This document shows positions 17,290 to 64,000 of a stretch of DNA of 64,000 nt, piece by piece (the first letter of the stretch is position 1; every line of letters starts with the position of its first letter). This stretch comes from Nitrospiraceae bacterium (GTDB lineage: Bacteria > Nitrospirota > Thermodesulfovibrionia > UBA6902), in assembly GCA_003599505.1 (NCBI GenBank), contig QZKO01000053.1, forward strand, positions 3,378 to 67,377. The letters are read 5' to 3'. The translations under genes and the position numbers were made by a program. The notes beneath the pieces are model-generated. The model had not been told where the DNA came from and did no database searches. It saw only the letters and a program-made list of their open reading frames with translations.

Positions 17290-17313
17290 TTGAACCCTCG
17301 GCCCCTTGAACCC
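17289..17313. repeat. Two copies of CTTGAACCC (reverse complement GGGTTCAAG) in the ffh-trxB gap
   Basis: Direct reading. The same motif recurs at 31561-31590. Confidence 0.6.
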
Positions 17314-17316
17314 TTC

Positions 17317-25775: not shown

Positions 25776-25780
25776 AATTT

Positions 25781-25815
25781 AGCTATAAGCTGATAGCTGT
25801 AAGCTGTCAGCTAAA
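25781..25815. repeat. 35-bp heptad array AGCTATA AGCTGAT AGCTGTA AGCTGTC AGCTAAA
   Basis: It fills the thiH-thiS gap exactly, with the same AGCT core and 5x7 architecture as the array at 1961. Confidence 0.8.
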
Positions 25816-27870: not shown

Positions 27871-29790
27871 CTACTTGCGCTTCACTAAATTAAGCAGCCC
27901 GCCGGCAAGGATAATCTGTCTCTGTCTTTCAGACAGGCCGTGTTCAGCCTTATAGGTCACACCTGTGTTCACATCCCTGAACATGACCCCGGGAGATTCC
28001 CTTACGTCTTTCGCGAGAGAAGGGAATTCCATTTCAGCGTCCTGCTGCAGTGCGTCATAAACATCCGCGGGGACTGTAAGGGGAAGGATACCGAAGTTTA
28101 TCAGGTTGTCCCTGTGGATACGGGCGAATGATTTTGCCAGGACAATCTTGATACCAAGATACATCGGCGCAATCGCGGCATGCTCCCTGCTTGAGCCCTG
28201 CCCGTAATTGTTCCCTCCCACAACTACACCGCCGCCTGCGCTCTTCGCCCTTGACGGAAATGAAGGATCAAGCTTTGAAAACACATACTCCGATATGGCG
28301 GGGATGTTCGATCTCAGGGGAAGAATCTTTGCGCCCGCGGGCATGATGTCGTCGGTGGTGACATTGTCTCCTACTTTCAGAATTATCTTTGCCGTCAGTG
28401 ATTCCTCAAGCGCGCCCCTGACCGGCAGGGGTTTGATATTGGGTCCTCTCTCAACAACCACCTTATCGGATTTCTTTAAAGGCGGGACAATCATTGAGTC
28501 ATCAACTGTGAATTTTTCAGGCAGCGCGACCCTTGCCCCCTGACCCTTGACCCAGTTTTTGGGGTCCGTTATCTTGCCTGTAATAGCGGAAACCGCCGCT
28601 GTTAAAGGACTGCACAGGTAAACTTTGTCATTTGCCGTGCCGCTTCTTCCGGGGAAGTTCCTGTTGAACGTCCTGAGTGAAACAGCTCCCGTGGGCGGGG
28701 CCTGTCCCATGCCGATGCAGGGGCCGCAGGCCGGTTCAAGCACCCTTGCGCCGGCGGAGATAATGTCTGCCAGCGCGCTGTCCTTTGTAATCATATGCAG
28801 CGCCTGCCGTGAACCGGGGCTTATCGTGAGGCTGACATCAGGGTGGACTTTGTGTTTTTTAAGTATCTTTGCCGCAAGTATCAGGTCCGCGTACGATGAA
28901 TTGACGCAGCTCCCGATGCACACCTGTTTTACCGGCATACCTTCAACTTCTTTCACCCTCTTTACGTTATCAGGGCTTGAAGGGGCCGCAATCAGCGGTT
29001 CAAGTTTATCAAGTTCAATAATAACCTCTTCGTCATATCCTGCATCAGCATCTGCTTTGAGCTCTGTCCAGTCCGCCAGGCGCTTCTGCGCTTTCAGGAA
29101 AGCCCTGGTCTGTTCATCCGAGGGGAATACCGATGACGTCGCGCCGAGCTCGGCCCCCATATTGGTTATCGTCGCCCTTTCAGGCACTGTGAGGTTTTTT
29201 AATCCGTTGCCGCCGTACTCCATGATTTTCCCGACCCCGCCCTTTACAGTCAGGCGTCTGAGGACTTCAAGGATGATATCTTTCGCGGTAACGCCGTTTC
29301 TGAGCTTGCCGGTCAGTTTCACATGGACGACCTTCGGCATGACAAGATAAAACGGCTCTCCAGCCATAGCGAGCGCAACGTTCAAGCCTCCCGCGCCGAT
29401 GGCCAGCATGCCGGCAGCGCCCGCGTTCGGCGTATGGCTGTCCGAACCGAGCAGGGTCTGCCCCGGTTTCGCGAACCGTTCAAGGTGCACCTGATGGCAG
29501 ATACCGTTGCCGGGTCTTGAAAAATAAATACCGTATTTGGCTGCTATGGTCTGGAGGAACCTGTGGTCATCTGCGTTCTCAAAACCGGTCTGAAGAGTAT
29601 TGTGGTCAATATAACTGACAGACAACTTTGTCCTGACTTCCGGTATCCCCATAGCTTCAAATTCAAGATAAGCCATCGTGCCGGTTGCGTCCTGCGTCAA
29701 AGTCTGGTCAATGGATATGGCTATCTCCTCACCGGGTCTCAGGTTTCCCGATACAAGATGTGTTGAAATCAGCTTCTGCGCAACGTTCAT
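27871..29790 (-). CDS. Aconitase-family hydratase (639 aa)
   Basis: Aconitase-family sequence throughout, including SDSHTPN..GxGG-like segments. Confidence 0.65.
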   Translation of the reverse strand: MNVAQKLISTHLVSGNLRPGEEIAISIDQTLTQDATGTMAYLEFEAMGIPEVRTKLSVSYIDHNTLQTGFENADDHRFLQTIAAKYGIYFSRPGNGICHQVHLERFAKPGQTLLGSDSHTPNAGAAGMLAIGAGGLNVALAMAGEPFYLVMPKVVHVKLTGKLRNGVTAKDIILEVLRRLTVKGGVGKIMEYGGNGLKNLTVPERATITNMGAELGATSSVFPSDEQTRAFLKAQKRLADWTELKADADAGYDEEVIIELDKLEPLIAAPSSPDNVKRVKEVEGMPVKQVCIGSCVNSSYADLILAAKILKKHKVHPDVSLTISPGSRQALHMITKDSALADIISAGARVLEPACGPCIGMGQAPPTGAVSLRTFNRNFPGRSGTANDKVYLCSPLTAAVSAITGKITDPKNWVKGQGARVALPEKFTVDDSMIVPPLKKSDKVVVERGPNIKPLPVRGALEESLTAKIILKVGDNVTTDDIMPAGAKILPLRSNIPAISEYVFSKLDPSFPSRAKSAGGGVVVGGNNYGQGSSREHAAIAPMYLGIKIVLAKSFARIHRDNLINFGILPLTVPADVYDALQQDAEMEFPSLAKDVRESPGVMFRDVNTGVTYKAEHGLSERQRQIILAGGLLNLVKRK

Positions 29791-31551: not shown

Positions 31552-31560
31552 TAAGACAAA

Positions 31561-31590
31561 GGTTTCAAGGGTTCAGGGGTTCAAGGGGAA
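31561..31590. repeat. GGTTTCAAG GGTTCAGG GGTTCAAGG tandem repeat
   Basis: Direct reading. Same motif as at 17289. Confidence 0.6.
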
Positions 31591-34590: not shown

Positions 34591-34875
34591 ATGAAAATAG
34601 TAATTATTGTAATTGTTGTGGCTATTCTGGGTTTACTCCTGGTTTACAGCCAACAGCATGATATGCCTGCGCAGACAGTCGGTCATCCTGCGGCAGGCGG
34701 CTACGGCGCTGCTCCTGCGGCAGGCGGCTATGGTTCCGCCCCGTCAGGTGGTTATGGGCACGCGCCCGCGGGCGGTTATGGAGCGCCCGCTGTCGGCGGA
34801 TACGGCGCGCCTTCAGGCGGGTATGGAGCGCCTTCAGGCGGGTATGGAGCGCCGTCAGGCGGTTACGGACATTAA
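34591..34875 (+). CDS. Small TM-anchored Gly/Tyr-rich repeat protein (GGYGAPS x8)
   Basis: N-terminal TM helix followed by 21-bp tandem DNA repeats. Confidence 0.45.
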   Translation: MKIVIIVIVVAILGLLLVYSQQHDMPAQTVGHPAAGGYGAAPAAGGYGSAPSGGYGHAPAGGYGAPAVGGYGAPSGGYGAPSGGYGAPSGGYGH

Positions 34876-34910
34876 ATTAAGTCATCTGTTAACCTTAAAA
34901 ACAGACAGGT

Positions 34911-35381
34911 GTGAAAATGAAAAAAATACTTATTGCAGTAGATGACACAAAAGGCAGTAAAACGGCATTTGAAGCTGCATGCAATATGGTTTCCTGTATG
35001 CGTCCCGAGGCGACGATTTTGTGCTATGTGGAAAAACTCGAAGGCAGGTCTTTGATGGATGATACCCTTATGAGTGTTTCCGAGATGTCTACCTTGAAAA
35101 AAGCGCTTGAGGGAACGGAATATCAGGAGGCGCTGGATAAAAAGGCGCAGGCAATTACGGGCTATTACAAAAAGACACTGGAGGACAAGGGTATAACCGG
35201 TGTAAAAACCGTAATAAGAAAAGGTCATCCTGCCGAGGAGATCCTCGAATCCGCCAAAGAAGAAGGCGCGGAGATGATCGTGATAGGTTCAAGAGGCAAA
35301 AGGGTATCCCATTTATTCATGGGAAGCGTCAGCAGGGAAGTTGCGAACAGCGCTACTGTCCCTGTCTTGCTTGTTAAATAA
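34911..35381 (+). CDS. Universal stress protein
   Basis: ILIAVDDT...IVIGSRGK...VPVLLVK. Confidence 0.8.
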   Translation: MKMKKILIAVDDTKGSKTAFEAACNMVSCMRPEATILCYVEKLEGRSLMDDTLMSVSEMSTLKKALEGTEYQEALDKKAQAITGYYKKTLEDKGITGVKTVIRKGHPAEEILESAKEEGAEMIVIGSRGKRVSHLFMGSVSREVANSATVPVLLVK

Positions 35382-35455: not shown

Positions 35456-36874
35456 TTGCCGCGTGAACGGTATAAAGTGAAAAATTTAAATGACAAAGGG
35501 ATTGTGGTGTTAGGCGGCGGACTCGCGGGTCTTTCTTCCGCCTTTACCCTGGCAAAAGCGGGACAGCCCGTCAAGGTTTTTGAAAGTGATTCCGGAGTAG
35601 GCGGGCTTTCAAAAACAATGCATTACGGCGACTTCAGATTTGACCTCGGCGGGCACAGGTTTCTCACAAGCAATGAACAAACCGAAAATTTTGTAAGGGA
35701 CCTGCTTGACGGTGAATACCTGACCGTGCCCCGCAAGAGCAAGATATTCATGAACAACAGGTTCTTCGACTATCCCCTCAAGCCCGCGAACGCCCTTCTG
35801 GGGCTCGGCATGCGCACAACGTTCAGGGCCCTTGCCGATTACGGCAGGGAAAAAATAAAAAATTCTTTCAGGCGGCCGGCGCATGTTTCCCTTGAGGACT
35901 GGGTGGTGGCCCATTTCGGCAGGACCATGTTCAACATTTACTTCAGGGAATACAGCGAGAAGGTTTGGGGGCTGGAATGCAAAAGCATCAGCGAAGAGTG
36001 GGTGTCAAAAAGGATAGAAGGGCTCTCCCTCGGAGTGGCGATAAAGAACGCGCTGTTTAAATTCAACGGTAAAAAGGTCCCCACGCTGATTGATAAATTC
36101 ATTTACCCCGCGCTGGGGATCGGGCGGATATCCGACAGACTGAAAGAAGAAATAGAAAAGGGCAACAGCGTGTCGACCAGCACGAGGGTAACGCGCATTG
36201 ATCATAAGGGCCCTTTCATCACAGGCATAGCGGCAAAAAATTGTGAAAGGGCTTACGACGTCAAAGGCCGCGAATTTATCTCCAGCATTCCTCTGACAAA
36301 CCTTGTAAAAATGCTCAGCCCCGCTCCACCCGGCGAAATTATCGAAGCCGCGTCAAGGCTGAGATACCGGGACCTTGTAATCGTTACGATACTGCTTGAT
36401 AAGGAAAGGGTGACGGACCTTACATGGCTCTATCTTCCGGAAAAAAATATGCCGCTGGGCAGGATCCATGAGCCGAAGAACTGGAGCCCGCGCATGGCGC
36501 CGGAGGGGAAGACCAGCGTTGTCGCCGAATACTTCTGTTTCAGGGAAGACCGCATATGGAATTCAACAGACGGAGAGCTCACGTCGATTACAGTAAGAGA
36601 GCTGGAGAAACTCGGTTTTATCAGGGAGAATGAAGTCCTTGACAGTTGCGTCGTCAGAGTGCCGAACGCGTATCCGGTATTTGAAGTCGGCTATAATGAG
36701 CATTATTCAGGGATTCTTAAATATCTTGAGAAATTCAAAAACCTCCACATAATCGGCAGAAGCGGCATGTTCAGATACTACAACATGGACCGCGCTATTG
36801 AGACCGGGATAGAAACGGCTGAAAATATAATTCAAAATTCAAAACTCAAAACTCAACGCCGGGATTCTTTATGA
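35456..36874 (+). CDS. FAD-dependent oxidoreductase (amine-oxidase / phytoene-desaturase-like)
   Basis: VVLGGGLAGLSSAF dinucleotide-binding motif. Confidence 0.6.
   Translation: MPRERYKVKNLNDKGIVVLGGGLAGLSSAFTLAKAGQPVKVFESDSGVGGLSKTMHYGDFRFDLGGHRFLTSNEQTENFVRDLLDGEYLTVPRKSKIFMNNRFFDYPLKPANALLGLGMRTTFRALADYGREKIKNSFRRPAHVSLEDWVVAHFGRTMFNIYFREYSEKVWGLECKSISEEWVSKRIEGLSLGVAIKNALFKFNGKKVPTLIDKFIYPALGIGRISDRLKEEIEKGNSVSTSTRVTRIDHKGPFITGIAAKNCERAYDVKGREFISSIPLTNLVKMLSPAPPGEIIEAASRLRYRDLVIVTILLDKERVTDLTWLYLPEKNMPLGRIHEPKNWSPRMAPEGKTSVVAEYFCFREDRIWNSTDGELTSITVRELEKLGFIRENEVLDSCVVRVPNAYPVFEVGYNEHYSGILKYLEKFKNLHIIGRSGMFRYYNMDRAIETGIETAENIIQNSKLKTQRRDSL
36830..36857. repeat. Heptad array ATTCAAA ATTCAAA ACTCAAA ACTCAAC
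   Basis: It encodes the C-terminal tail of the oxidoreductase, 14 nt before the next start codon. Confidence 0.65.
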
Positions 36875-38343
36875 AATGCGTCCTTATCATACCCGCGTGG
36901 GCCCCTGAAGATATATTTTCTTCCAAGACCGCGGGCTCGCAGATAAACTACTGGCAGCCGCTTGGCACCCTTTACGTCGCCTCCTCATTGATAAAAGCAG
37001 GGCACGAAGTGAAATTCCTTAACGGCGCTTTCATGAAGCATGACGAAATCATGAAAGCGGTTTCATGCTTCAGCCCTGAATTCGTCGGCATTTATTCCAC
37101 GACATTCGGATGGAAGAAGGCGATGTTTACGGCGTCGGAGATAAGAAAGTCAGAAGTCAGAAGTCAGAAGTCAGAAGTAAATGACTACACTTTCATCGCC
37201 GTCGGCGGACCATATCCGATTGCGATGCAGGAGAAATGCCTCGAAGATTCCCCGGATGTAGACGCGGTAATTACTGGAGAGGGAGAAATTACCGTTGTAG
37301 AAATGCTGGATAGATTGTCCCGGGGCAAAAGTTTTGAGGGTGTTGAAGGAGTTGTATTCAGAGAAAACGGGAAGATAACAAAAAACCCTCCGAGGCCTCT
37401 TGTCACCGATGTTGATTCCATCCCCTTTCCCGCGCGTGAGCTGCTGGGGGACGCGCGCAGGTACATCCCTCCTCCCGCGACTTACAGGCGAAAACCGGTA
37501 GCCGTCATCATGACCGCGCGCGGCTGCAACAGGAGGTGTCTCTTCTGTTTTCAGATCGATAAGGAAAGAAAACTCGGCATCCGCTATCGCAGCGTTGAAA
37601 ACGTCATGCAGGAGATAGAGCTCTGTTTAAACCAGGGATACCGGGAGATAAAGTTCATTGACGACACGTTCGCCGCGGACTATGACCGGGCCATAAAGAT
37701 AACGGAAGAGATAAAAAGGCGCAAGCTTGATTTCACGTGGTTTGCCTCAGCGTGTGTCAACCAGGTGGATAAACCCCTGCTTAAGGCTTTCAAAAACGCA
37801 GGATGCTGGGCCCTGCTCCTCGGCGCTGAAAGCGGTGTGCAGAGAAATCTGAATACAATCAGGAAAGGGATAACGCCGGAGCAGACCCGCAGGGCGGTAA
37901 AAGCGGCAAAAGAAGCCGGCATAACAGTCTATACCCCGTTCCTTTTCGGCATACCGGGGCAGACCTTTGAGGACGGACTGAAGACAATCGAATTTGCCTG
38001 TGAGATAAACCCCGACATAGCGAACTTCCACGCCCTTACGCCTTTTCCGGGCACAGAGCTTTATGACAATATCGAAAAATACGGAACAATGTCTGCCGAC
38101 CTGACGGATTTCACCTACCAGGGAGCCGCCTTTGTCCCTTACACAATGACAAGGGAAGAAATCGCGGAACTCAGGCAGCTCGCGTTCAAAAGGTTTTATT
38201 CGAGGCCGTGTTTTATTGTAAAACGGATACTCGGCCTCAGAAGCTTTCATGATCTTAAAGCTGCGGCTAAAGGATTCAGGAGCCTCTTCTGGTTGTGGCT
38301 TAATAATGATGTCTTCCGCCGAAGCGGAAATACCGCGTCCTGA
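36871..38343 (+). CDS. B12-binding radical-SAM protein
   Basis: CNRRCLFC (Cx3Cx2C) with an N-terminal B12-binding-like domain. Confidence 0.65.
   Translation: MKCVLIIPAWAPEDIFSSKTAGSQINYWQPLGTLYVASSLIKAGHEVKFLNGAFMKHDEIMKAVSCFSPEFVGIYSTTFGWKKAMFTASEIRKSEVRSQKSEVNDYTFIAVGGPYPIAMQEKCLEDSPDVDAVITGEGEITVVEMLDRLSRGKSFEGVEGVVFRENGKITKNPPRPLVTDVDSIPFPARELLGDARRYIPPPATYRRKPVAVIMTARGCNRRCLFCFQIDKERKLGIRYRSVENVMQEIELCLNQGYREIKFIDDTFAADYDRAIKITEEIKRRKLDFTWFASACVNQVDKPLLKAFKNAGCWALLLGAESGVQRNLNTIRKGITPEQTRRAVKAAKEAGITVYTPFLFGIPGQTFEDGLKTIEFACEINPDIANFHALTPFPGTELYDNIEKYGTMSADLTDFTYQGAAFVPYTMTREEIAELRQLAFKRFYSRPCFIVKRILGLRSFHDLKAAAKGFRSLFWLWLNNDVFRRSGNTAS
37149..37176. repeat. Heptad array AGTCAGA x4 inside the rSAM gene
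   Basis: Perfect 7-bp tandem. It encodes SEVRSQKSEV. Confidence 0.8.
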
Positions 38344-41178: not shown

Positions 41179-42471
41179 TTAAAACTCGTACCTCATCTGG
41201 ATGTAGATATTATCATTCTTGTCCAATTGCCCGAACTGGTCCCATTCCTCTCCGCCGCCGAAAATATCGGCCCCGGCTGCCGCCCATATATTATCGGTAA
41301 AATTGTATTTAACCTCAGGGTTCAACATGTAGTCGCGAGCTGCCGGGCTGAAAAAGGAAAAGAACGAGAGCCTTAGGGTTTGATGGATCAGGAATTGAGT
41401 CAGCCTTACCGTGACAAGGTCATGTATCTTTTTTTCCAGCGGGAACCCTGACGGAAGATTTGCTTTATAAGCGGAGTAATCATGCATGTATTCGAGATAG
41501 TACTGAAGCCCCAGCGTAAAGTCTTCCCACAACTGTCTCTGATAACCCGTCAGGAACCTTGTTTGCGGATTCGGGGACATCGGGTCTGTTCCGTCCCTGT
41601 CTTCCCTCGAATCATAGTATCCCGCCTCAAGACTGAAAACACCCTCCAGGGCCCTTCCCTGAAGGCTTGCTCCGTAAACGGAAAGTTTGGGGAAAAACAG
41701 GTCAATCCGCGTTGGCGCGGTCAGGCTGTCAGGAAGCATGGAAGGCTGCCTGAAGAACCCGCGGTAAAAATAAAGCGACGCATCAAAACCCGCTACATCA
41801 CGATATAGCCTCAGGGCGACTTCGGTGTTATTAAAAGTGCTTGAAGGCTTTTTCTCTTCCCTGTCCGTGATCAGAGGCATCGGATCAAACAGGTGAAATC
41901 TGTCAGGATCAGGGAAATTGTTCTCTTCAAAGAATGGGATGATAATCAATTCAGCAGAGGCAAAAGACGGATACATGCCGAGCTTGATGCCGTCTATGCC
42001 TTTTTTAAGGTATTCCAAAGGCCTTCCTGAAAAGAACGCCTCGAAGTCCTTGGGGAAGACATCGTTTATGAAGATCAGATCTCCAAGCCCCCATGTAATT
42101 ATCTGTCTGCCGATCCTTACGTCATAGCTTGAAGATGTGAGGTCGGCGTATCCTTCCCTTAATTCCAGTTTGGATGCGTCGTCAATATGGTCATAAAAGA
42201 CATCGGTTTTCATGAAGAAGCGCAGTGGTTCTACGTCTGTTTCGATCTTTAACTGGGCCCTCTCCCCGGCCCATTTGAAGTCGCTGCCGTCGGGGTTTGA
42301 TGTATCGGTATTGACAGAGTAATTACCCTGAACAAAACCATGTAAAGAGACATCGGATGCAATGGCAGAAGACAGAAGACAAAGCACAGAACACAGAATA
42401 CAGACAACAGATAAAAAAGACTTGCTCTTGATTATTAATCGTTGATTGTTAGTTTTCAGCGTCTGCTTCAT
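41179..42471 (-). CDS. Outer-membrane beta-barrel protein (DUF1302-like)
   Basis: Signal peptide and a C-terminal aromatic Phe. Clustered with LolA-like and MMPL genes. Confidence 0.5.
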   Translation of the reverse strand: MKQTLKTNNQRLIIKSKSFLSVVCILCSVLCLLSSAIASDVSLHGFVQGNYSVNTDTSNPDGSDFKWAGERAQLKIETDVEPLRFFMKTDVFYDHIDDASKLELREGYADLTSSSYDVRIGRQIITWGLGDLIFINDVFPKDFEAFFSGRPLEYLKKGIDGIKLGMYPSFASAELIIIPFFEENNFPDPDRFHLFDPMPLITDREEKKPSSTFNNTEVALRLYRDVAGFDASLYFYRGFFRQPSMLPDSLTAPTRIDLFFPKLSVYGASLQGRALEGVFSLEAGYYDSREDRDGTDPMSPNPQTRFLTGYQRQLWEDFTLGLQYYLEYMHDYSAYKANLPSGFPLEKKIHDLVTVRLTQFLIHQTLRLSFFSFFSPAARDYMLNPEVKYNFTDNIWAAAGADIFGGGEEWDQFGQLDKNDNIYIQMRYEF

Positions 42472-42484
42472 AATCCAAACTCTT

Positions 42485-42511
42485 TAGGGGCGAGGCATTG
42501 CCTCGCCCCTA
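42485..42511. repeat. REP-like hairpin TAGGGGCGAGGCATTGCCTCGCCCCTA
   Basis: Perfect 11-bp stem. The same TAGGGGCG/CGCCCCTA ends recur at 63720 and 63911. Confidence 0.6.
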
Positions 42512-42540
42512 CAACTCATAACTCCTGACTCTTTTAACTC
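42511..42540. repeat. Heptad array ACAACTC ATAACTC CTGACTC ..AACTC
   Basis: AACTC-core 7-mers adjacent to the hairpin. Confidence 0.55.
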
Positions 42541-42545
42541 TTTTT

Positions 42546-43354: not shown

Positions 43355-45733
43355 TTATTTTCGCCCCTCACACTTATCACAAAACAACCAACCCTGAAAT
43401 AACGTTATAAGCGCCGGGATATATATTATCGTCATGATTGCGCTTAACAGCATCATGCTGACGATGAAAGCTCCCACAGTGATATATGGTGTTAAGGGCG
43501 CGAACATCATCACGGAAAAAGATGCCGCAAACAGCACAGCGTTGCGCATTATTCCCTTGCCCGGTCTCGCGGCAGTCCATAATAAAGACTGAGTTATGAG
43601 TTCAGAGTTTGGAGTCTGGAGTTCTTTGTCTTCTGAACTCTTAACTCTTAACTCTAAACTCTCAACTATTTTTTGTCTGAACCTGCCTATAAAATGTATC
43701 GCAAAGTCCACTGCCATGCCGAGGCTGAGACATGAAAGGACGGATATCGGCATGTCAAAATCTTTCCCCATATATCCGACAACTCCGTAAATCAGCAGGA
43801 TAGTGAAAAGGAGAGGGGCATATCCGACAAGGGCCCATTTTATGGACCGGAAGTTGACTGCAAGGATGATAAACACAGTGATTAACGCAATGATAAATCC
43901 TCTCAGCATGTCATAAAGGACCTCATCATTCCACACAAGATTGAAATAGGCAATGCCTGCCGGTTTAAATTCCATCTCCATTTGCAGGGGCAATTCATGA
44001 ATTGCCCCTGCTTTATATTCCTCTACCGCCTTTATCACATCACGCATGGCCTGGGCGTCCCACGTTTTCAGTTGGACCCAGATATTCGCCTTTCTGAACG
44101 GATAGTCGACGACGTTGTCCAGGTCAGACGGTTTCGCGGACATACTGAACAAGAAGAGATACTGTCCTATTGTCTCTTTTGTTTCAGGGACCGTATCATA
44201 TTCCGGATCATCATCGTGAAGGACTTTGTTTATCCTCTTTACGTAATCCACAACCGAACTCGTTTTCCCGACGACTGAAAGCTTTTCAAGATGTCTTTGA
44301 AGTCCTTCAATATACCGCATAGCCTCAGGCGTCTTTATATAATCATCTTCTTTCGACTGCGCCACTATGTAGCCGAGCGATGTGCCGCCGAGGGCCTGAT
44401 TTATGACATTGTCGGCAATACGCACTTCACTGTCTTTCTTGAACCACTCCACCAGGTTGTTATTGACTACTATCTTTGTCAGTCCGAAGACTGCTATCGA
44501 AAAAAGCACAAGGCCGACAAAAACCGTGCTCTTTGGTTTATGCGCGCCGAAACCGGCCAGGCTTTTCAGGAATTGCGACGTCCTGCTGAATTCAATATCC
44601 TCACTCTTTGACGCCTTCTCAATATGTTCCTCTTTCACAAAAGTAAACATTGCGGGTATGAAACTGAAGCTTAAGACCCTCAACATCACAGTGCCGAAGG
44701 CCACGAGCCCGCCGAAAACCTTGACAGGAATGATATTCATAAACAGAAGCACGCCGAACCCCACTGCTGTCGCAAGAGCGGTATATCGCACGGGACGGCT
44801 CACAGCGTTCATCGTTTCAATTATTGCCGTTTTTTTATCCTTAGTCTCTCTATAGCGAAAGTAGAATTCATTGAAGATATGAATGCTGTCGGTCGCTATA
44901 GCCATCAAAAAGACCGGGGCCATGGAGCTCATAATGTGAACAGGGAATCCGAGCGCTATCAAAAGCCCCATGCTCCAGACGATGCTGACCATTGCGTCCA
45001 TCATGAGCGTGACAGAAAGGAAAAGGTCCCTGAACATGAGGTATCTGATAAGGAGCATCACCATTCCCGCTATCGGGGCAAAGACCGCCATGAGCTTAAA
45101 CATTTCAGCGCCGAAGGTATCTCTTGCAACAGGGTCTCCTGCTATATAATATTTTTCATCGCCTTTCTCTTTGCCGGCAATCTCTCTTATTTTGTCCGCT
45201 ACTTCTTTGCCGTTTGCGCCTTTTTCAAGAGGGACATAGATGGCGGTGTTTTTTCCGTCTTTTGAGATGATGCGATCAATAAAAAGCGGATTTTCAAAGA
45301 GCATCTTCCGGAGCTTCCGCATCTCCGCGTCATCTTCCGGAACTTCGGTCATAAGCGGCGCTACCTTTAAGGTCCCTGCCTCAGCCGATACATTGGTAAT
45401 GGTAGGAAAGCTGTTGACGTCCCTTGCGGCAACGCCCTTTATCTTCAGGATTTCATCGGTGATATGGATTATCTTTGAGAGTGTCCCTTTGTTGAGTATT
45501 CCCTTTTCGTTTACTATCCCGACTACTATCATGTCTTCATAGAGGCCGAATGTCTTTTCCACTTCATCATTCCATACCCTGACATCCGAAGTCTCCGGGA
45601 GCATGCTCTTCGGGTTTGTGTCAGTCCTGATCTTCGGGAACTGGGTCGCAAACGCAAGGGTAATGAGAATTGTTAAAAGCACCACTAATTTAGGGTGGTT
45701 TACAGAGAAATTGACAAGAAAAGACTTTTTCAT
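43355..45733 (-). CDS. RND-superfamily MMPL exporter (HpnN-like), 792 aa
   Basis: Twelve TM helices with two large periplasmic loops. Confidence 0.7.
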   Translation of the reverse strand: MKKSFLVNFSVNHPKLVVLLTILITLAFATQFPKIRTDTNPKSMLPETSDVRVWNDEVEKTFGLYEDMIVVGIVNEKGILNKGTLSKIIHITDEILKIKGVAARDVNSFPTITNVSAEAGTLKVAPLMTEVPEDDAEMRKLRKMLFENPLFIDRIISKDGKNTAIYVPLEKGANGKEVADKIREIAGKEKGDEKYYIAGDPVARDTFGAEMFKLMAVFAPIAGMVMLLIRYLMFRDLFLSVTLMMDAMVSIVWSMGLLIALGFPVHIMSSMAPVFLMAIATDSIHIFNEFYFRYRETKDKKTAIIETMNAVSRPVRYTALATAVGFGVLLFMNIIPVKVFGGLVAFGTVMLRVLSFSFIPAMFTFVKEEHIEKASKSEDIEFSRTSQFLKSLAGFGAHKPKSTVFVGLVLFSIAVFGLTKIVVNNNLVEWFKKDSEVRIADNVINQALGGTSLGYIVAQSKEDDYIKTPEAMRYIEGLQRHLEKLSVVGKTSSVVDYVKRINKVLHDDDPEYDTVPETKETIGQYLFLFSMSAKPSDLDNVVDYPFRKANIWVQLKTWDAQAMRDVIKAVEEYKAGAIHELPLQMEMEFKPAGIAYFNLVWNDEVLYDMLRGFIIALITVFIILAVNFRSIKWALVGYAPLLFTILLIYGVVGYMGKDFDMPISVLSCLSLGMAVDFAIHFIGRFRQKIVESLELRVKSSEDKELQTPNSELITQSLLWTAARPGKGIMRNAVLFAASFSVMMFAPLTPYITVGAFIVSMMLLSAIMTIIYIPALITLFQGWLFCDKCEGRK
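43591..43667. repeat. 77-bp heptad-built hairpin (GAGTTnn x5 / nnAACTC x5) inside the MMPL coding sequence
   Basis: The imperfect inverted arms encode LELRVKSSEDKELQTPNSELI in frame. Confidence 0.75.
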
Positions 45734-45826: not shown

Positions 45827-46159
45827 TTACTTCATGGCAAATTTTCTCGCCATCTTCTGTCCTTCTTCAAGCCTTTCCAGCAGAACCTCTCTCATAAGGC
45901 TGCATGCCATGATGACCTTGGGGTTGGCGACTTTATAATAAACATTGTTACCTTCTCTTCTCGATGAAAGTATCCCCTTCTGTTTCATGACAGCAAGATG
46001 CTGGGAGACATTTGCAGGTGATATTCCCAGAATATTTACAAGCTCTCCAACAGCCAATTCCTTATCTCCAAGGGCATTCAGAATTTCTATTCTCTTGGCA
46101 TTACCAAGCGTCTTGCATATGTCGGCGTGGATTTCATGAATTTTCTTGCTCATTATCAT
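45827..46159 (-). CDS. ArsR/SmtB-family transcriptional regulator
   Basis: Winged HTH ELAVGELVNILGISPANVSQHLAVMKQKGIL. Confidence 0.8.
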   Translation of the reverse strand: MIMSKKIHEIHADICKTLGNAKRIEILNALGDKELAVGELVNILGISPANVSQHLAVMKQKGILSSRREGNNVYYKVANPKVIMACSLMREVLLERLEEGQKMARKFAMK

Positions 46160-46218
46160 GACATATCTTATTAAATTATCAATAAAACCTCAACTGATCT
46201 GCTCCTCATTTTACTTTT

Positions 46219-46641
46219 TCAAAATGTCAGGTTCATATCCGCCATTATAACAACCTCTTTGTAGTATGTGGCAGGGTTTGCAAGCTTAACCCCTTCAATA
46301 AAATTTGTCTCACTCATCCCAAACAGCGGGACATTCAATGGACAAGCTAAAAGTTTTGCTCCCTCCATGTGCAGCATAACGAACAGGTCTTCAACATTCG
46401 GCAGTTCCATTTCTTCCATTCTTCTCATTACAGCTTCGCCAAATTCTTTGGGCTGATCAGGCAGGCATTGAAGGGTCTTTACCTTCTCCTTGTGAAGTGC
46501 ATTCACGCCGCGTGAGCCAAAGAATATCGTGACCTTTGAACCCTCTCTTAAAAGGCTTAATGCAGTCATGAGGGCATTATAGACCTGACAAAGCTCATCA
46601 TGGAAACACATTATAGAGACATTCTTTACTATTTTTTCCAT
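46219..46641 (-). CDS. DsrE/DsrF-like family protein
   Basis: KVTIFFGSRGVNAL... (PF02635-like). Confidence 0.5.
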   Translation of the reverse strand: MEKIVKNVSIMCFHDELCQVYNALMTALSLLREGSKVTIFFGSRGVNALHKEKVKTLQCLPDQPKEFGEAVMRRMEEMELPNVEDLFVMLHMEGAKLLACPLNVPLFGMSETNFIEGVKLANPATYYKEVVIMADMNLTF

Positions 46642-46657
46642 CTTGCACCTCCTGATT

Positions 46658-47845
46658 TTAAGGAAGATTAGTCAGTCCTCTTTTAATCTTCCAGAGGTAA
46701 TATTTTTCGAAGGCCAGTTTCGCCCATTTATAACTGAGGCCTACTTTAAGCTCTGCTTCCCGCCGTGGTGGAAGAACAGGGTATGCCTTCATCAACGCCC
46801 CTTTATTCCCCATATCCATAATACAGAGGGCCCCGACAGGCTCGGTTTCGGGAGAAGGCTTTCCGAGTATTTCTGCCGCAATGCTCTTTGCCGCATCCTT
46901 TGCCATATGCTCAGTCATGAATCCTGTCTTTGGTACACCTGTAGGAACAGGCGTCTGTTCCGGCGGCGCTATTACTATTGCAACCCCTACAGAAAAGATA
47001 TTTTTATAGCTCTTGTGACGGTAATTGGCATCAACAGGAATAAAACCTTTGGGATTGCCGAGATGGAATACGGCCTTGACGCCTGCCATTGGAGGGGCAA
47101 ACATGGCGAGCCTGAAAGGCAGCTTTATTCCGTCTTTCAACCTGACTTCATCAGGAACGAACTCTTCCACTGTCTGGTTTGCGATGACTTTGATTTCCCT
47201 GTCTGCGAATTCATCTTCCATCATTCTTCTGGATGTTCTGAGCCCGCCGATTCCAAAATGACCGATATAGGGTTCGGAAGTAACAAAGGTCATGGGGACC
47301 TTGTGCCGTATGTTTCTTTTCCTTAATTCGGTGTCTACCTCAAACGCATATTCATAGGCCGGCCCGAAACAGCTTACTCCCTGCACGGCGCCGACAACGA
47401 CCGGGCCGGGGTTTTCAAGGAATCTGTCCCAGGCCTTCTTTGTTTTCACGGCCTGATCCAGTGTAAAAATACATTCCGTATGCCCGCCGTAAGGACCAAA
47501 TCCCGGAACTGATGAGAAGCCAAGGTCGGGCCCGGTAGCTATTACAAGATAATCGTATCGAAGCTCCTGTGTTGCAGTAACAACTTTTGCCGCGTCCGCG
47601 TCCACGCCGACCGCCGCTTCACATATAAATTTTATGCCTTTGCCGGTGAGCATATTTTCAAGTCCGATAGTTATTTCTTCGGGTCTTCTCCAGCCCATTG
47701 ATAACCAGGGAAGGGAAGGGACAAAGACAAATTTGTCCGTGTCGCAGACTAACGTTATCTCGGCCTTGCTGCCGAGCAGCCTTCTCAATTCAAAGGCGGA
47801 GGTCAGCCCCCCGAAAGAACCTCCAAGAATTACTATCTTTGCCAT
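46658..47845 (-). CDS. sqr: Sulfide:quinone oxidoreductase
   Basis: KIVILGGSFGGLTSA with an SQR-type flavoprotein fold. Confidence 0.7.
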   Translation of the reverse strand: MAKIVILGGSFGGLTSAFELRRLLGSKAEITLVCDTDKFVFVPSLPWLSMGWRRPEEITIGLENMLTGKGIKFICEAAVGVDADAAKVVTATQELRYDYLVIATGPDLGFSSVPGFGPYGGHTECIFTLDQAVKTKKAWDRFLENPGPVVVGAVQGVSCFGPAYEYAFEVDTELRKRNIRHKVPMTFVTSEPYIGHFGIGGLRTSRRMMEDEFADREIKVIANQTVEEFVPDEVRLKDGIKLPFRLAMFAPPMAGVKAVFHLGNPKGFIPVDANYRHKSYKNIFSVGVAIVIAPPEQTPVPTGVPKTGFMTEHMAKDAAKSIAAEILGKPSPETEPVGALCIMDMGNKGALMKAYPVLPPRREAELKVGLSYKWAKLAFEKYYLWKIKRGLTNLP

Positions 47846-47855
47846 GTTGCCTCCT

Positions 47856-48137
47856 TTAAAATATTCCCACTACCTTGTCTTCATCGGCCATTATTCCAAC
47901 CAGGCCGTCATAACTTAATTTTTTTATTCCCCCCTCCAGTTCCCCGTCTTTTAAACCCCTTAATCTCAGGTCATCTTCAAGGACGTATAAAATCCCGCAA
48001 AAACCTTCGAGCCTTTCCTTTTTAGCAAAATATACCGCATTCTGAACCAGGCAGATATCGGCAGACAGGTCCCTTGCAAGCTTGACCCCTCTTTTCCCAT
48101 CCTGTGTATCAGGCCCGCTTTTGACAATAACAAACAT
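47856..48137 (-). CDS. dsrH: DsrH/TusB-like protein
   Basis: Small protein at the third position of an E-F-H operon. Confidence 0.55.
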   Translation of the reverse strand: MFVIVKSGPDTQDGKRGVKLARDLSADICLVQNAVYFAKKERLEGFCGILYVLEDDLRLRGLKDGELEGGIKKLSYDGLVGIMADEDKVVGIF

Positions 48138-48147
48138 AATGACCTCC

Positions 48148-48501
48148 TTAATAAATCAATGTTGTCTTTGCATTTTTAACAAGCTCTGCTATCTCAGCGC
48201 CGGTTATTACCTTAATCCCTTCAGGGATATCCGCCGTATCCATGTCCTGTTCTCTGATTGAATGCTTATCCGCGTATACGTCAACCCCCATCTCCATACA
48301 GTCCGTCAGGGCCTCCCCCAGATTTGTAAAGCCTGTGTCCGTATCGTCCTGCCCCTGCTTTGCAAGCAAAACCCCGGCGTCAATCAGAATGAGGTCTACA
48401 CCTAATTCATCCGCAACGCCGCCCATGGCATGCCTTACAGCCTCTGCAGCATTAATATCACCATAAGGCGACCTTCTCAAAATAATCGCAATGTCTTTCA
48501 T
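48148..48501 (-). CDS. dsrF: DsrF/TusC-like protein
   Basis: MKDIAIILRRSPYG...LILIDAGV. Confidence 0.6.
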   Translation of the reverse strand: MKDIAIILRRSPYGDINAAEAVRHAMGGVADELGVDLILIDAGVLLAKQGQDDTDTGFTNLGEALTDCMEMGVDVYADKHSIREQDMDTADIPEGIKVITGAEIAELVKNAKTTLIY

Positions 48502-48510
48502 AATATCCTC

Positions 48511-48867
48511 CTATGCTCCCATATTCAGCCAGATATCGGTTTCACCCATTGTCTTAAAAAGACCCTTGAGTGTGCCGACTTCCGCGTTATCAAGATAATC
48601 ATTCTTCGCTGCACGGCGAAAGTTAAGACATCCGCCTCAGAGATATACCCTTAAACCTTTCTCGATAAGCTCTGTGAACTTCTCCTCAGCATTTGTTATA
48701 CCCTTTGCTTTCTGCCCTTTTAAAAAACAATACACCCCGTCACCTGACGCGATGACGTTGACCGTATGTCCTTTACTCAGGGCAGATTCCGCAATCTTTA
48801 CCGTGGTAAGGGTGTTCTCATAAGAATACGGCGATGTGCCTAACAACAGTGTAAAAGTCTTACTCAT
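48511..48867 (-). CDS. dsrE: DsrE/TusD-like protein with in-frame UGA (candidate selenocysteine) at 48637-48639
   Basis: The 76-aa track ORF stops at TGA and the frame continues GGCLNFRRAAKNDYL...WLNMGA* (TusD C-terminal half). The UGA falls at or near the conserved active-site Cys, giving a UxxC motif. A hairpin follows immediately downstream. Confidence 0.6.
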
Positions 48868-48902
48868 CTTATCCTCCTAAGTTTGGATTTTTTATCCTTC
48901 CC

Positions 48903-50090
48903 CTATTTCTTCTTTAATTCAATCCAGGTTACAAAAATGTAAAAAGCCAGAAGTATTGCCAGCACGCCAATTAAAGAACCTCCCCAGCCAAGCTTTTCAG
49001 GCAGGAATACCGTTTTTCCGTAGAGCCACCCCTTTCCCGCCTGTTCTCCATAAAGAGGCACCCATAATCCCGCAACGAGCATTGCCCCAAGCACAGCAAA
49101 CCAGTGTCTTATATATCCCTCGGCCGACCGCCAGAGCATGCCGGCTGCTCAACCTCCCGTCATGACCATTCCGAACCCGAAAAGCGCCCCGCCTATGATA
49201 CTGTGCATGCCTGCCGGAAGGATGAACATATCAGCAGGCCTGAAGCCGTTTGCTTTTATAATGGCAAACCCCACCGTCCCTATCATCAGGCTAAGCAGGA
49301 GATTCCGCATGGGCTCATTGTGCTTTGTTGTAAAGACTTCCCTGAACCCGGCGGATATACAGAAAGAGGACCTCTGGAATACTATCCCGAAGGCAGCGCC
49401 GAAGAGCAGTATGCCTCCCAGGACATATTTTCCTGTGACAAAATAAACTGAGGCTATGATAAACATTGTGATTGCAACAACAAGACCTATTAACGGATAA
49501 TTAACTACCCTTGTAATCTTTTTTTCAGGAACTGTTTTCAGATCAACGAGTTCTGTGAACTCCATTTTTTCCGCCTCTCTGAAGGCCTGCCATATCATGA
49601 ATTTTCCGCCGAAATAAGCGCCTGCGAGCAAACCTGTCATCATATATAATCCGCTCAGAGACAGGGACATGATTGATGAATAAAATCCTCCAAAGATGCA
49701 GGCGCCGACAAGGAAGCTGCCGAGACCCATCAGGGCCCCGCCGGCAAAACCCTGTATATAACCGGATGTTGAATCTTTTCTGAGTTTAAATTGTCGTGAA
49801 AGGAGGGCGGAGATAAGGGTGCCGAATATCAGTCCGAAATTCAGAATGCTGATAATACTCAGATGGGGCGGCGTTAAGGTCCCCCAGGGCGGCGTTATAT
49901 TCAAACCTGCCAGCCTGTACATCCATATGCCCCAATCAGCAATAGCCGGATAAATACCGCCCAGGGGCATCAGGAATAAAAACATTAATATATTCAGGAA
50001 CGCAACCAGAATGCCGCCAAGCCACAGCGGCCAGGTCTTCTCAAAGAGATTCTTATATAGTTTTCCATGAAAATATTCTGCGAGTGTCAT
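48903..50090 (-). CDS. YeeE/YedE-family transporter with in-frame UGA (candidate selenocysteine) at 49149-49151
   Basis: Track ORFs 49149..50090 and 48903..49139 are in the same frame, separated by TGA plus 3 codons. The junction GFGMVMTGG-U-AAGMLWR aligns with the GGCxSG motif of the paralogue at 32826. Confidence 0.6.
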
Positions 50091-50108
50091 GCATATCTCC
50101 TTCTTAAT

Positions 50109-50450
50109 CTATTTTTTTCTGTCCCCGTGATACTTGCCTTTTTTTGTAACGGGACAACATTCAGGTCCCGGCAGTTCGTCAGGGTAATCTTTTTTGAGTA
50201 TTTCGAGCAGATCAGGGATGAGCGGGTTTTTCAGAAAGTAACATCTGAGCCTTCCGTCTACAAAGTAATCAATGATGCCCGCATGCCTTAATGCGGAAAG
50301 ATGCTGGGAGACATTGGACTGGCTGAGGTCGAGAAATCCCTCGAGGTCGCTGACGCACTTTACGCCCTTTATCAGTTCTTCTAAAATTGCGATCCTTGCC
50401 GGATGCGCTACCAGTTTTATCAGATCTATTCGTGATGATAACTCATGCAT
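50109..50450 (-). CDS. ArsR-family regulator with Cys-rich C-terminus
   Basis: HTH SDLEGFLDLSQSNVSQHLSALRHAG. Confidence 0.75.
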   Translation of the reverse strand: MHELSSRIDLIKLVAHPARIAILEELIKGVKCVSDLEGFLDLSQSNVSQHLSALRHAGIIDYFVDGRLRCYFLKNPLIPDLLEILKKDYPDELPGPECCPVTKKGKYHGDRKK

Positions 50451-60940: not shown

Positions 60941-63283
60941 TCATATTTTCACGCCCTTAAGCAGCGCGGAGTTGCTGACAACCGAGAGCGAACTCAATGC
61001 CATTGCCGCCGAAGCCACAATTGGGTTCAGCAATCCGAATGCCGCGATGGGAATGCCGATGCTGTTGTAAATAAGCGCCCAGAAGAGATTCTGTTTAATC
61101 TTGCGCATGGTTGCCCTGCTCAGCTTTATGCCTTTAATAACATCCCTCAAATCGTCCCTTACGAGAATAATGCCGCCGGTCTCTTTTGCAACGTCAGAGC
61201 CGCTTCCGATGGCTATTCCGATGTCAGCCTGGGCAAGGGCCGGGGAATCGTTGATCCCGTCGCCTACCATCGCGACGACTTTGCCCTGAGACTGAAGTTC
61301 TTTGACCACTTTCGCCTTGTCCCCGGGAAGGACATTTGATATGATCCTGTCAATGCCGACCCTTGACCCGATGGCCTTTGCAGTGCGCTCATTGTCCCCG
61401 GTCAGCATCACAACTTCCACTCCTTCAGCCTTTAAGCCCTTAATCACTTCTTCCGCGTGTTCTTTAAGTGTATCGGCGACCGCGATGAATCCGGCGAGCT
61501 TTTTATCATGAGCGACGATCATTACTGTATTGCCCTTTTCTTCAAGTCCTGAGACGAGCTTCTCGTCGGCCTCAATTGAGACGCCGTTTTCTCTCATCAG
61601 TTTCCTGTTGCCGACAAGTATTTCCCGGCCCTGATATGAGACCCTTATCCCGTGCCCGGGTATCGCCTCGAATTTTTCAGCATCCGGGATGTCAAGTCCC
61701 TGCATCTTCGCCCTCTTTATTATCGCCTCGGCAAGCGGGTGCTCCGAACCCTTTTCAGCAATTGCAGCAAACTGTAATATTTCTTCACTCTTAACTTCTG
61801 CCCCTTGCCCCTCAATAATTTCCGTTACCTCCGGCTCTCCCTTTGTCAGGGTCCCTGTTTTGTCAAAGACTACCGCATTTAATTTCTCCGCCCTTTCAAG
61901 GTATTCGGCGCCCCTTATGAGTATCCCTAATTCCGCGCCCTTGCCTACGCCGACCATCAGCGCAGCAGGCGTTGCAATCCCGATGGCGCAGGGACAGGCG
62001 ATGATGAGGACTGCGACAAAGGACAAAAGGGCTGCCGTAGAATTCCCTGTTATTATCCATAACGCGGCCGATAGAAATGCAATACCGACAACTGCCGGAA
62101 CGAAATATGACGCAATCCTGTCAGCGAGCCTCTGGATTTGAGAGGATGACGTCTGGGCCTCTTCTACCATCTTTATTATCTGGCTCAGGGTTGTGTCCGC
62201 GCCGACCCTTGTCGACCTGAACTTGAAAGAACCTACCTTGTTTAGCGTCCCCCCTATGACTTCATCTCCTGCTTTTTTCTCCACCGGAACGCTCTCGCCG
62301 GTGATCATCTTCTCATCAATTGACGAATGTCCGTCAATAACGACGCCGTCAGTCGGTATCTTCTCGCCCGGCCTGACAACTACTATTTCATCCGCCATAA
62401 GCTGCTCTGCCTGGATTTCAATTTCTTCTTCCTTCCTTATCACCCTCGCCGTCTGCGGTTTTAAATCGAGCAGCTTGCGTATGGCGGCGGAGCTGCGCTT
62501 CTTGATTATCTCTTCCATATATTTGCCTAAAAGGACAAAGGCAATTATGATCGCTGAGACCTCAAAATAAACATTCTTTTCCTCAACAGGCAGCACGCCG
62601 GGGAAGAAGACCACGAACGCGCTGTAAATATACGCGGTCGATGTGCCGAGCGCTATGAGGAGGTCCATATTCGCCACGCGGTCTTTGATTGCGTGCCAGG
62701 CCCCGACAAAAAAACTTTTGCCGCCGAAGATCATGATCGGCGTCGTGATAATAAAAAGCCATACCCCCCATGTAAACCACGGAAGCCAGGGTACCGGCAC
62801 CCACGTGAGGACTGTCGCCCCTGCCGCAAGACCAAGGAACACCGCGGCCCTGAAGATCGCAAGGGCTACTACGCCTGTGAGGGCAATAGCTACCCGCCTC
62901 TTCATGTCCCTGAGCTCTTCCTCAGGCGCCTCAAAGGTCTTCACGCAGCTTTCAGCGCAAAAATAATACGTCCTGCCCCCGACCTCCCTTTTTATGGAAC
63001 GTTCTTTCGGGATGACCATCCCGCACACGGGGTCTTTCGCCATGCCTTCTTTCTTTTCTTCCTGCCCCTTGTCCCTTGCCTCTTGCCCCCTGCCTCCGAG
63101 GAAAGATTCAGGGTCTTTATCGAATTTCTCTTTGCAAACAGGCGCGCAGAAATAATAGACACTCCCTTTGTATTCCGAAGAACCGGCTGCGTCCTTTTTA
63201 TCTATTGTCATCTTGCAGACAGGATCGACGGCCTGTCCGGTTGTCACCTGCTTGCCGATGCCGAGCTTTATTGATTTCTGCAT
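60941..63283 (-). CDS. copA: Copper-translocating P1B-type ATPase with two N-terminal YHS/TRASH domains
   Basis: DPVCKM...YYFCAPVC and DPVCGM...YYFCAESC, then CPC, DKTGTLT and [10 protein letters not shown]. Confidence 0.85.
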
Positions 63284-63719: not shown

Positions 63720-63746
63720 CAGGGGCGTATTGCGATACGCCCCTAC
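63720..63746. repeat. REP-like hairpin CAGGGGCGTATTGCGATACGCCCCTA
   Basis: 10-bp stem with the same GGGGCG/CGCCCC ends as the hairpin at 42485. Confidence 0.55.
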
Positions 63747-63895
63747 TATTTAATGTATTTCTCAGGCTCTTTGTCAAATTTTTCTTTGCAGGCCTTTGCG
63801 CAGAAATAATAGGTTTTGCCTTTGTAATCGCTTTTCGCCGCGGCCTCCTTTTCTTTGACGTCCATCTTACAGACCGGGTCCCGCGCCATTTCCAT
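63746..63895 (-). CDS. Small YHS-domain protein (49 aa), hand-called
   Basis: MEMARDPVCKMDVKEKEAAAKSDYKGKTYYFCAKACKEKFDKEPEKYIK. Confidence 0.55.
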   Translation of the reverse strand: MEMARDPVCKMDVKEKEAAAKSDYKGKTYYFCAKACKEKFDKEPEKYIK

Positions 63896-63910: not shown

Positions 63911-63936
63911 TAGGGGCGACCCGCCGGGTCGCCCTA
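63911..63936. repeat. REP-like hairpin TAGGGGCGACCCGCCGGGTCGCCCTA
   Basis: Imperfect 11-bp stem with the same family ends. It overlaps the stop of the partial gene. Confidence 0.5.
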
Positions 63937-64000
63937 CAGATTCTTCCTCAGTTTAGGCACAAACATCGGCGTCTCTTCCATATAGCGTTTATAGTCATTT
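63924..64000 (-). CDS. 3' end of a gene entering from beyond the window (..NDYKRYMEETPMFVPKLRKNL*)
   Basis: The minus-strand frame is open from the window edge to TAG at 63924. Confidence 0.3.

Follow-up and report, generated by a model that had tools for sequence, protein, structure and literature searches.

The short tandemly repeated repetitive sequences (STRRs) of cyanobacteria, which Mazel and colleagues reportedly described in 1990 as tandem repeats of heptanucleotides, and the small dispersed repeats (SDRs), very small palindromes that, in the 2008 account of Elhai and colleagues, are said to lie nested in the tandem heptamers of Nostoc, sometimes inside genes, form the background to the element considered here. 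This is a 77-nt hairpin, both arms of which are built of tandem heptads, lying in frame within an MMPL/RND-family transporter gene on a 64,000-nt stretch of DNA from a Nitrospiraceae bacterium (contig QZKO01000053.1, positions 3,378 to 67,377; hereafter the window, with all coordinates counted from its first base). Heptanucleotide units are the commonest long simple sequence repeats (SSRs) in prokaryotes, for which polymerase slippage has been proposed (Mrazek 2007 via PMC4679880). In Beggiatoaceae and cyanobacteria, TAACTGA repeats lie mostly between genes and now and then at protein peripheries (PMC4679880), GGGNATC repeats are known in Xanthomonas and Nostoc (PMC4692102), and passages of a study of Geobacter metallireducens count 49 four-heptad elements within and between genes (PMC2700814). 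The repetitive extragenic palindromes (REPs) are tagged with GTAG or CGTC and are sometimes intragenic (PMC3733652); their doublets (REPINs) are tied to the REP-associated tyrosine transposases (RAYTs) (PMC3116915). The classical in-frame palindromic inserts are the Rickettsia palindromic elements (RPEs) (PMC10969869).

On the plus strand of the window, the element comprises a run of five GAGTYnn heptads (GAGTTAT GAGTTCA GAGTTTG GAGTCTG GAGTTCT, 43591-43625), a 9-nt loop (TTGTCTTCT, 43626-43634) and a second run of five nnAACTC heptads (GAACTCT TAACTCT TAACTCT AAACTCT CAACT, 43635-43667). Read on the minus strand, that of the mRNA, the second run becomes the 5' arm (43635-43667; GTTGAGA GTTTAGA GTTAAGA GTTAAGA GTTCAGA) and encodes VESLELRVKSS, the loop (43626-43634) codes for part of SEDKE, and the first run becomes the 3' arm (43591-43625), which reads nnAACTC and encodes ...ELQTPNSELITQ; the in-frame translation of the hairpin is the low-complexity peptide VESLELRVKSSEDKELQTPNSELITQS. 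An initial annotation, made from the letters of the window, had given this 77-base sequence with its heptad arms, and it proved exact on re-reading. A repeat search delimits two arms of 33 nt with 76% complementarity, and Tandem Repeats Finder assigns period 7 to both (5.1 copies at 89% in one, 2.7 copies in the other). Each arm at 43591-43667 thus holds five head-to-tail units, where at least three 7-nt units are expected of a repeat of this kind. Folding the RNA, a check that the initial annotation had proposed, gives one long imperfect hairpin on the mRNA strand at -34.7 kcal/mol, for which z = -7.2 relative to 200 dinucleotide shuffles that reach -15.5 on average and never fold as well; with DNA parameters the value is -14.9 kcal/mol (z = -3.2). 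Set against its orthologues, the variable cassette spans 81 nt (43586-43666, minus strand; codons V690-S716), and only one of its six frames, the one used, is free of stops. An Rfam search of the cassette recovered no family, only sub-threshold chance hairpin matches, and nothing was called at the hairpin by a promoter and terminator scan. On the antisense strand the hairpin is followed by ATTTTTTG (43668-43676, plus strand), so that it resembles an intrinsic terminator of antisense transcription; this T-run is common to one orthologous locus (L003) and absent from most other cassettes, and the terminator scan was silent there.

The host gene (43355-45733, minus strand) encodes a 792-aa MMPL/RND-family transporter with Pfam MMPL, Patched and sterol-sensing matches, and its open reading frame (ORF), Pfam profile and translation bear out that the hairpin lies within it in frame. 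Its 120 best protein matches are MMPL transporters of 765-799 aa from metagenome-assembled genomes (MAGs) of Nitrospirota/Thermodesulfovibrionia, 76-92% identical, and the length differences among these aligned proteins pile up at the position of the cassette, after a helix with a conserved MAVDFAIHF motif and before a helix starting at LLWTAARPGKG. We compared 80 loci from species-representative genomes and 80 from metagenomes, along with 2 from the closest proteins, and extracted the DNA between the two anchors (VDF[AS]IHF to LLWTAARPGKG) in 149 of them. The inter-anchor length is 54-63 nt in 'empty' orthologues (e.g., VSRLRQRMKETPGESLTDA), 105 nt in the window and up to 144 nt elsewhere, and is a multiple of 3 in every state seen. 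Alignment thus upholds the DNA-level insertion that had been predicted, at a smaller size: the net gain over empty orthologues is 42-51 nt, or about 14-17 residues rather than about 25, and the outermost heptads overlap DNA that aligns with native E-S...E-S-L-T-D codons. An AlphaFold model built from a 23-sequence alignment (mean predicted local distance difference test score, pLDDT, of 62) has a helix up to residue 697 and a coil at 698-709, with pLDDT below 50 at 697-706. A PDB search with the single protein gave no match, and a profile search gave weak matches to RND proteins and MmpL3 that do not usefully cover the loop. Because these PDB matches are weak, it is from the general 12-helix RND topology and the AlphaFold secondary structure that we place the cassette, probably, in the cytoplasmic loop between transmembrane helices 10 and 11 (TM10-TM11). 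In frame, missing from many orthologues and set in a low-confidence coil, it has the properties expected of an in-frame palindrome at a tolerant position of a conserved gene.

This MMPL loop is a hypervariable insertion-deletion hotspot. From the empty state (54-63 nt between anchors), the heptad forms extend through a rudiment of a single left unit and two right ones (L023, AGTTCGG...CCGAACTCCGAACTC), a right arm alone (L024, TEQTPNSELITDS; L060) and 4+4 units about a shorter loop (L010, L012, L089) to the 5+5 units of the window, L003 and L006, which are equal in length; units per arm run from 0 to 5. L024 resembles L012 minus its left arm, which argues against the hairpin being gained or lost as one unit. 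Other orthologues bear heptad hairpins of different units (AAGTCAG/CTTGACT in L044 and L120, GAGTCAG/CGACTCT in L025, and further ones in L084, L105 and L107), a lone array with no partner (AAGTCAG in L001, GGGTCAA x4 in L002) or two non-complementary arrays (L004; and L088, where AAGTCAG x5 stands with CTCGTCA x4 and the fold reaches -6.3 kcal/mol). Repeats of other classes occupy the same position, viz., C/G-rich hairpins read as PPLTKGG (L027, L034, L130, L136, and between heptad arms in L037 and L097), a small palindrome nested in CTCGTCA heptads (L082), and GTAG-type REP-like palindromes or doublets (L007, L014, L076, L081, L085, L161, L162) that translate as CRGEPLCSP...GQPQG.AP or VGAYGYTP. 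There are 52 distinct cassettes 57 nt or longer; 20 of them fold at z <= -3 and 17 no better than shuffles, with that of the window among the most perfect (z = -8.3). A single-unit 'seed' within empty sites was tried as a starting point and rejected: a lone AAGTCAG is present among them in L065 and L073 only and is hence not general. Two further details of the site concern its repeats. The nested palindrome of L082 (2161-2270; also in protein P0018) is a 19-20-nt sequence, CTGCCTACCGAGCAGGCAG, within the CTCGTCA array, with CTCGTCAC on either side; and right-arm arrays at the site often end in ..ATAACTGAT, which contains a TAACTGA unit.

The heptads are not confined to this gene. We surveyed 1.99 Mb, made up of the window and related loci, with an array caller whose cut-off is arbitrary (at least 3 copies, at most 15% mismatch); 64 kb of this total comes from the window's own genome. 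The window has 7 period-7 arrays against 0.1 expected from dinucleotide shuffles, and across the survey there are 167 arrays of period 7, as opposed to 61, 29, 25 and 5 of periods 5, 6, 8 and 9. The 149 distinct period-7 arrays represent 94 unit families, and 66 of 103 lie inside long ORFs. Of the 167, 47 (~28%) have an inverted partner within 80 nt that matches at 11 or more of 12 positions, as opposed to 8 when decoys, reversed or complemented, are sought. Hairpins whose heptad arms have unrelated units are seen in other genes and spacers of related genomes; therefore the architecture is recurrent and not peculiar to the MMPL gene. Away from the MMPL site, array density is 12.4 per 100 kb in loci with an MMPL insert and 7.0 in those without (p = 0.016). 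The Nitrospirota/Thermodesulfovibrionia MAGs thus show a genome-wide excess of period-7 arrays of diverse units, within and between genes. The pattern GAGTTNNGAGTTNNGAGTT, allowing up to 3 mismatches, matches the window 12 times against 1.76 expected, and its matches at 42513-42531 and 36829-36854 recover both of the other sites at which the initial annotation had noted related heptads. At the former lies an intergenic array of the hairpin's own heptad type (GAGTTAA/AAGAGTC/AGGAGTT/ATGAGTT, 42513-42545, minus strand) adjoining a REP-like hairpin, and at the latter an ATTCAAA/ACTCAAA array (36827-36859, plus strand), read in frame, at the 3' end of an amine-oxidase gene (35456-36874).

A second hotspot lies in the B12-binding radical SAM gene at 36871-38343, where a perfect AAGTCAG x4.6 array (37145-37181, plus strand) is read in frame as RKSEVRSQKSEV. 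Among its orthologues (P0121-P0240; loci L163-L166), the corresponding loop of the B12-binding domain (EIR...FI) is minimal, or holds the REP-like peptide RGGFETRP, or PPLSPFVKGG or PTLKKGGAGGF, or the heptad peptide RKSEVRSQKSEV. The alike states of the MMPL and radical SAM loops indicate that three classes of small repeats occupy single permissive positions in two unrelated genes. The REP-like class is also represented between genes in the window: the GTAG-type palindrome TAGGGGCGAGGCATTGCCTCGCCCCTA (42485-42511, no strand assigned), which adjoins the heptads at 42513-42545, has the form of a REP, i.e., a G+C-rich palindrome of 20-40 bp with an unpaired GTAG/CGTC tag. Intergenic GTAG-type palindromes of the form GTAGGGGCG...CGCCCCTAC occur at 42485-42511, 63720-63747 and 63911-63937, and their close kin lie in frame in the MMPL loop of L007, L014, L076, L085, L161 and L162.

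On balance, we favor a quasi-palindromic heptanucleotide repeat, akin to STRRs and long SSRs (LSSRs), that grew in place and was kept in a tolerant loop, and consider this view probable though far from assured. Its direct basis lies in the surplus both of period-7 arrays and of inverted partners, the graded states of the site, the preservation of frame, the single open frame of the cassette and the second hotspot. The graded states and the modular arms look more like growth and turnover of repeats in place than like the insertion of a unit. Under this view, the arrays would lengthen and shorten in 7-nt steps through slipped-strand mispairing, and purifying selection would retain those net lengths, in multiples of 3, that code for a hydrophilic, stop-free linker where extra length is tolerated. 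The cassette would then owe its survival solely to being in frame, lacking stops and lying in a loop that tolerates it, and its peptide may have no specific role of its own. The same hotspot would also gather the GTAG-REP-like and C/G-rich 'PPLTKGG' hairpins, which may replace heptads or nest inside them.

Several points weigh against in-place growth, chief among them the sharing of the cassette across divergent species. The 81-nt cassette of the window matches those of L003 and L006 at 75/81 positions each (93%), at the same length, whereas whole-gene identity to the window is 76% (L003) and 73% (L006) and flanking third codon positions are 44-49% identical. Its conservation across the three is exceeded by just 0-8 of ~2,300 gene windows (top 0-0.3%), the tract of high identity stops within ~30 nt beyond the cassette, and the changes fall mostly at the 'nn' and loop positions and leave the GAGTT/AACTC cores intact; L037 and L097 behave like this trio. 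Were slippage free, relatives should differ in copy number; the 5+5 cassette keeps one length in all three. L161 and L162, which are closest to the window (76-81% identity at third positions), hold a REP-like insert instead, which points to abrupt replacement and not gradual change. The AAGTCAG unit recurs at unrelated genes, which pure slippage from random seeds does not predict, and three species with radical SAM genes ~72% identical share the x4.6 array of that gene unchanged; this array has equal copy number in five species and ranks in the top 0.1-4% of windows along the gene. Growth in place must also call on intrastrand copying (fold-back or template-switch), by which the inverted partner would arise or persist, and on some mechanism that would set the period at 7 nt. 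To these we add that the gene tree is a rough neighbor-joining one and that all comparison sequences are metagenome assemblies, with some loci being redundant samples of one population. Slow evolution of cassettes does not by itself explain the similarity: for two pairs of close relatives, L086/L087 and L083/L087, whose genes are 89-90% identical, cassette identity does not rise above that of the median window. A 93% cassette in distant species therefore requires either short-tract lateral exchange or constraint at the nucleotide level, and the sharing suggests lateral exchange or a lineage-specific nucleotide-level constraint. A scan of metagenomes turned up no near-identical strain, the best match being 81%.

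The initial annotation took the hairpin for a miniature mobile element. Part of this stands, since there is a DNA-level insert, it is polymorphic both in presence and in replacement, and one cassette is much more alike among distant species than the genes that carry it; the 93% cassette identity and the site polymorphism fit some form of lateral movement. The discrete mobile unit does not: nothing shows that the hairpin is a jumping element, and a classical MITE (miniature inverted-repeat transposable element) is not supported. In the 1.99 Mb, blastn with the 81 nt finds full matches solely at the MMPL site of the window, L003 and L006; the flanks (...ATAAAGACT / hairpin / ATTTTTTGT...) contain no target-site duplication and no direct repeat besides the heptads, and no conserved terminal sequence was found at the hairpin ends. 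A MITE- or REPIN-like non-autonomous element could nevertheless be mobilised in trans, moved as single-stranded DNA by an HUH/Y1 transposase (e.g., RAYT or IS200/IS605), with landing in frame within ORFs and with the heptads forming part of the recognised ends or target. We consider this unlikely. It would accommodate presence, absence and replacement at one codon-level position across the 149 loci, a shared tract that ends so close to the cassette while closer relatives differ, and the recurrence of units in unrelated genes, since AAGTCAG is shared by the MMPL genes of L001, L088 and L120 with the radical SAM gene of the window, and GGGTCAA by the MMPL gene of L002 with the window's aconitase gene. 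It would also agree with the GTAG palindromes, a class thought to be RAYT-mobilised (PMC3733652, PMC3116915), sharing the hotspot and adjoining heptads at 42485-42545, and the RPEs of Rickettsia are a precedent for in-frame palindromic inserts (PMC10969869). However, besides lacking duplications and conserved ends and being complete at one gene position, a mobile hairpin sits poorly with the half-hairpins of L024 and L060, the one-unit state of L023, the non-complementary or single arrays (L088, L004; L001, L002) and the 94 unit families; no transposase was identified in a partial, non-systematic scan of the window's ORFs. A broader form of the idea, prompted by the 93% cassette in genes of 73-76% identity and by the perfect AAGTCAG array in genes ~72% identical, is that heptad-arm hairpins are an undescribed class of small non-autonomous elements in Thermodesulfovibrionia whose cassettes pass between species as short tracts, which we regard as doubtful; that the heptad, GTAG-REP-like and C/G-rich 'PPLTKGG' hairpins all home in on shared codon-level positions of conserved genes is likewise not what we expect. 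If true, hairpin DNA would be the substrate of a site-directed activity that inserts or copies it, or else the arrays would have a function at the nucleotide level.

Such a function, whether that of an mRNA hairpin slowing translation or stabilising the message between transmembrane segments or that of a 7-nt-periodic protein-binding array, is in our judgment improbable, even though it would explain the very stable fold (z = -7.2 to -8.3), the sparing of the GAGTT/AACTC cores and the extreme conservation ranks of the cassette among 81-nt windows and of the radical SAM array, and even though regulatory roles have been proposed for heptamers in Beggiatoaceae (PMC4679880) and Nostoc (bioRxiv 10.1101/2022.06.06.494920). 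The stem shows no covariation: 81.9% of cells are paired, as against 81.8% in shuffles, 4 pairs carry double changes where 4.5 are expected, and stem substitutions mostly break pairs. Further, the 17 of 52 cassettes that fold no better than shuffles, the many orthologues devoid of an insert, the absence of an Rfam family and a cassette that evolves as fast as the gene or faster in L086/L087 and L083/L087 all speak against it. A fold-back or chimeric join made in metagenome assembly is highly improbable: inverted repeats can mislead assemblers and all compared sequences are such assemblies, but two independent assemblies (L003, L006) carry the cassette in frame at the same position, L010, L012 and L089 have related versions, and both the reading frame and the flanking conserved motifs are intact. 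We also dropped two narrower proposals. An origin through a GAGTC-specific nickase or GANTC methylation does not suit units as diverse as AGCTGAT, GGGCATA, AAGTAGT and CAGAACA, among others; and 7-bp target duplications from successive rounds of insertion and excision, as a source of the heptads, would be indistinguishable from the arrays themselves (L082), and there is no duplication around the nested element of L037.

The window's remaining arrays show the same disposition within and between genes. In frame are a GGGTCAA-type array (28528-28553, minus strand; VKGQGARV) in an aconitase-family gene (27871-29790), a GGGGCAA-type array (63061-63096, minus strand) in a P-type ATPase gene (60941-63283), an AGCGGTC array (24691-24725, minus strand) near the N-terminus of the thiamine-phosphate synthase (ThiE) gene (24130-24759) and a CAGAACA/TGTTCTG-type array (42366-42411) in the apparent signal peptide of the gene downstream of MMPL. 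The CAGAACA/TGTTCTG arrays code for the hydrophobic core (..LCSVLCLL..) of apparent signal peptides downstream of the MMPL gene; heptad arrays in signal peptides are also found in L003 (9122), L007 (11488), L008 (14051) and L015 (3211), and their unit sequence appears fitted to the local protein context. Intergenic AGCTnnn arrays (AGCTGAT, AGCTATC and others) lie at 1961-1996 and 25780-25813, with members of the family in L024, L030, L034 and L037; since AGCT is palindromic, these arrays self-pair. Period 8 is represented by 3 arrays in the window against 0 expected. The octamer arrays AAGGGTTC/GAACCCTT at 17284-17315 and 31559-31587 are mutual reverse complements; one is immediately upstream of the start of SRP54 (ffh) and the other a short distance downstream of a rhodanese gene. 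A 21/42-nt tandem repeat of 5 copies (GCGCCCTCAGGCGGGTATGGA, 34762-34869) in the ORF at 34613-34945 encodes a glycine-rich repeat. As for the neighborhood of the MMPL gene, a LolA-like lipoprotein-sorting protein gene lies downstream of it, and a sulfur-handling set (ArsR-type regulator, DsrE/DsrF/DsrH-like proteins, pyridine-nucleotide disulfide oxidoreductase, Sulf_transp and rhodanese) occupies 45827-50450 and is conserved, as judged from that part of the window and the gene table of L161.

Should the growth of heptanucleotide repeats in place within a tolerant loop hold, it would extend heptanucleotide-repeat biology, known mainly from cyanobacteria, Beggiatoaceae, Xanthomonas and Geobacter, to subsurface Nitrospirota, where arrays combine into long hairpins and in-frame ones are tolerated by housekeeping genes. 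It would also account for the source of the low-complexity peptides SEVRSQK, GQGSRVK, ELRVKSS, TPNSELIT, PPLTKGG and GQPQGAAPT, a class that inflates and diversifies the protein annotations of Thermodesulfovibrionia MAGs. The MMPL and radical SAM loops serve as natural maps of permissive linker sites. The conservation of the cassette across divergent hosts could bring to light lateral exchange of short tracts, or some process by which 7-nt arrays are written or protected, and bears on the old question of why 7 nt is the favored period of long SSRs in bacteria.

With the STRRs and long SSRs, whose arrays are mainly intergenic and at times within ORFs close to protein peripheries, the arrays described here share tandem 7-nt units, few copies per array, many arrays per genome and a favored period of 7. 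They differ from them in having 94 unit families, where there are one or few per genome in those systems, in the pairing of ~28% of arrays with an inverted array into a long hairpin, in the large share that lies in frame inside conserved housekeeping genes, and in their host, the Nitrospirota, for which no published report of such heptanucleotide repeats was found in the literature searched. The Nostoc SDRs have their likeness in the nested elements of L082 and of L037 and L097, whereas the window cassette is without a nested element. The Geobacter elements consist of four or five tandem heptads, in one or two families (GGACCGG, MTYCTGA) read as regulatory sites in the passages that treat them, and those passages do not describe paired-array hairpins inside an ORF or hotspot behavior (PMC2700814). 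Like the RPEs, our insert is palindromic DNA in frame in a conserved gene, with the peptide at a fold-compatible position, and arrays of one heptad unit recur in unrelated genes; the RPEs, however, are ~100-150 bp long and form defined families with many near-identical copies and no tandem heptads, whereas the cassette of the window is at one location. REPs and REPINs too are small hairpin-forming repeats, at times inverted doublets and at times within genes, but the heptad hairpin has no GTAG/CGTC tag, is AT-rich and has arms of tandem repeats rather than a single G+C-rich palindrome. What sets the present case apart is the host phylum, the coexistence of many unit families and the frequent pairing of arrays into long hairpins, together with in-frame residence in housekeeping genes at codon-level hotspots common to three classes of repeats.

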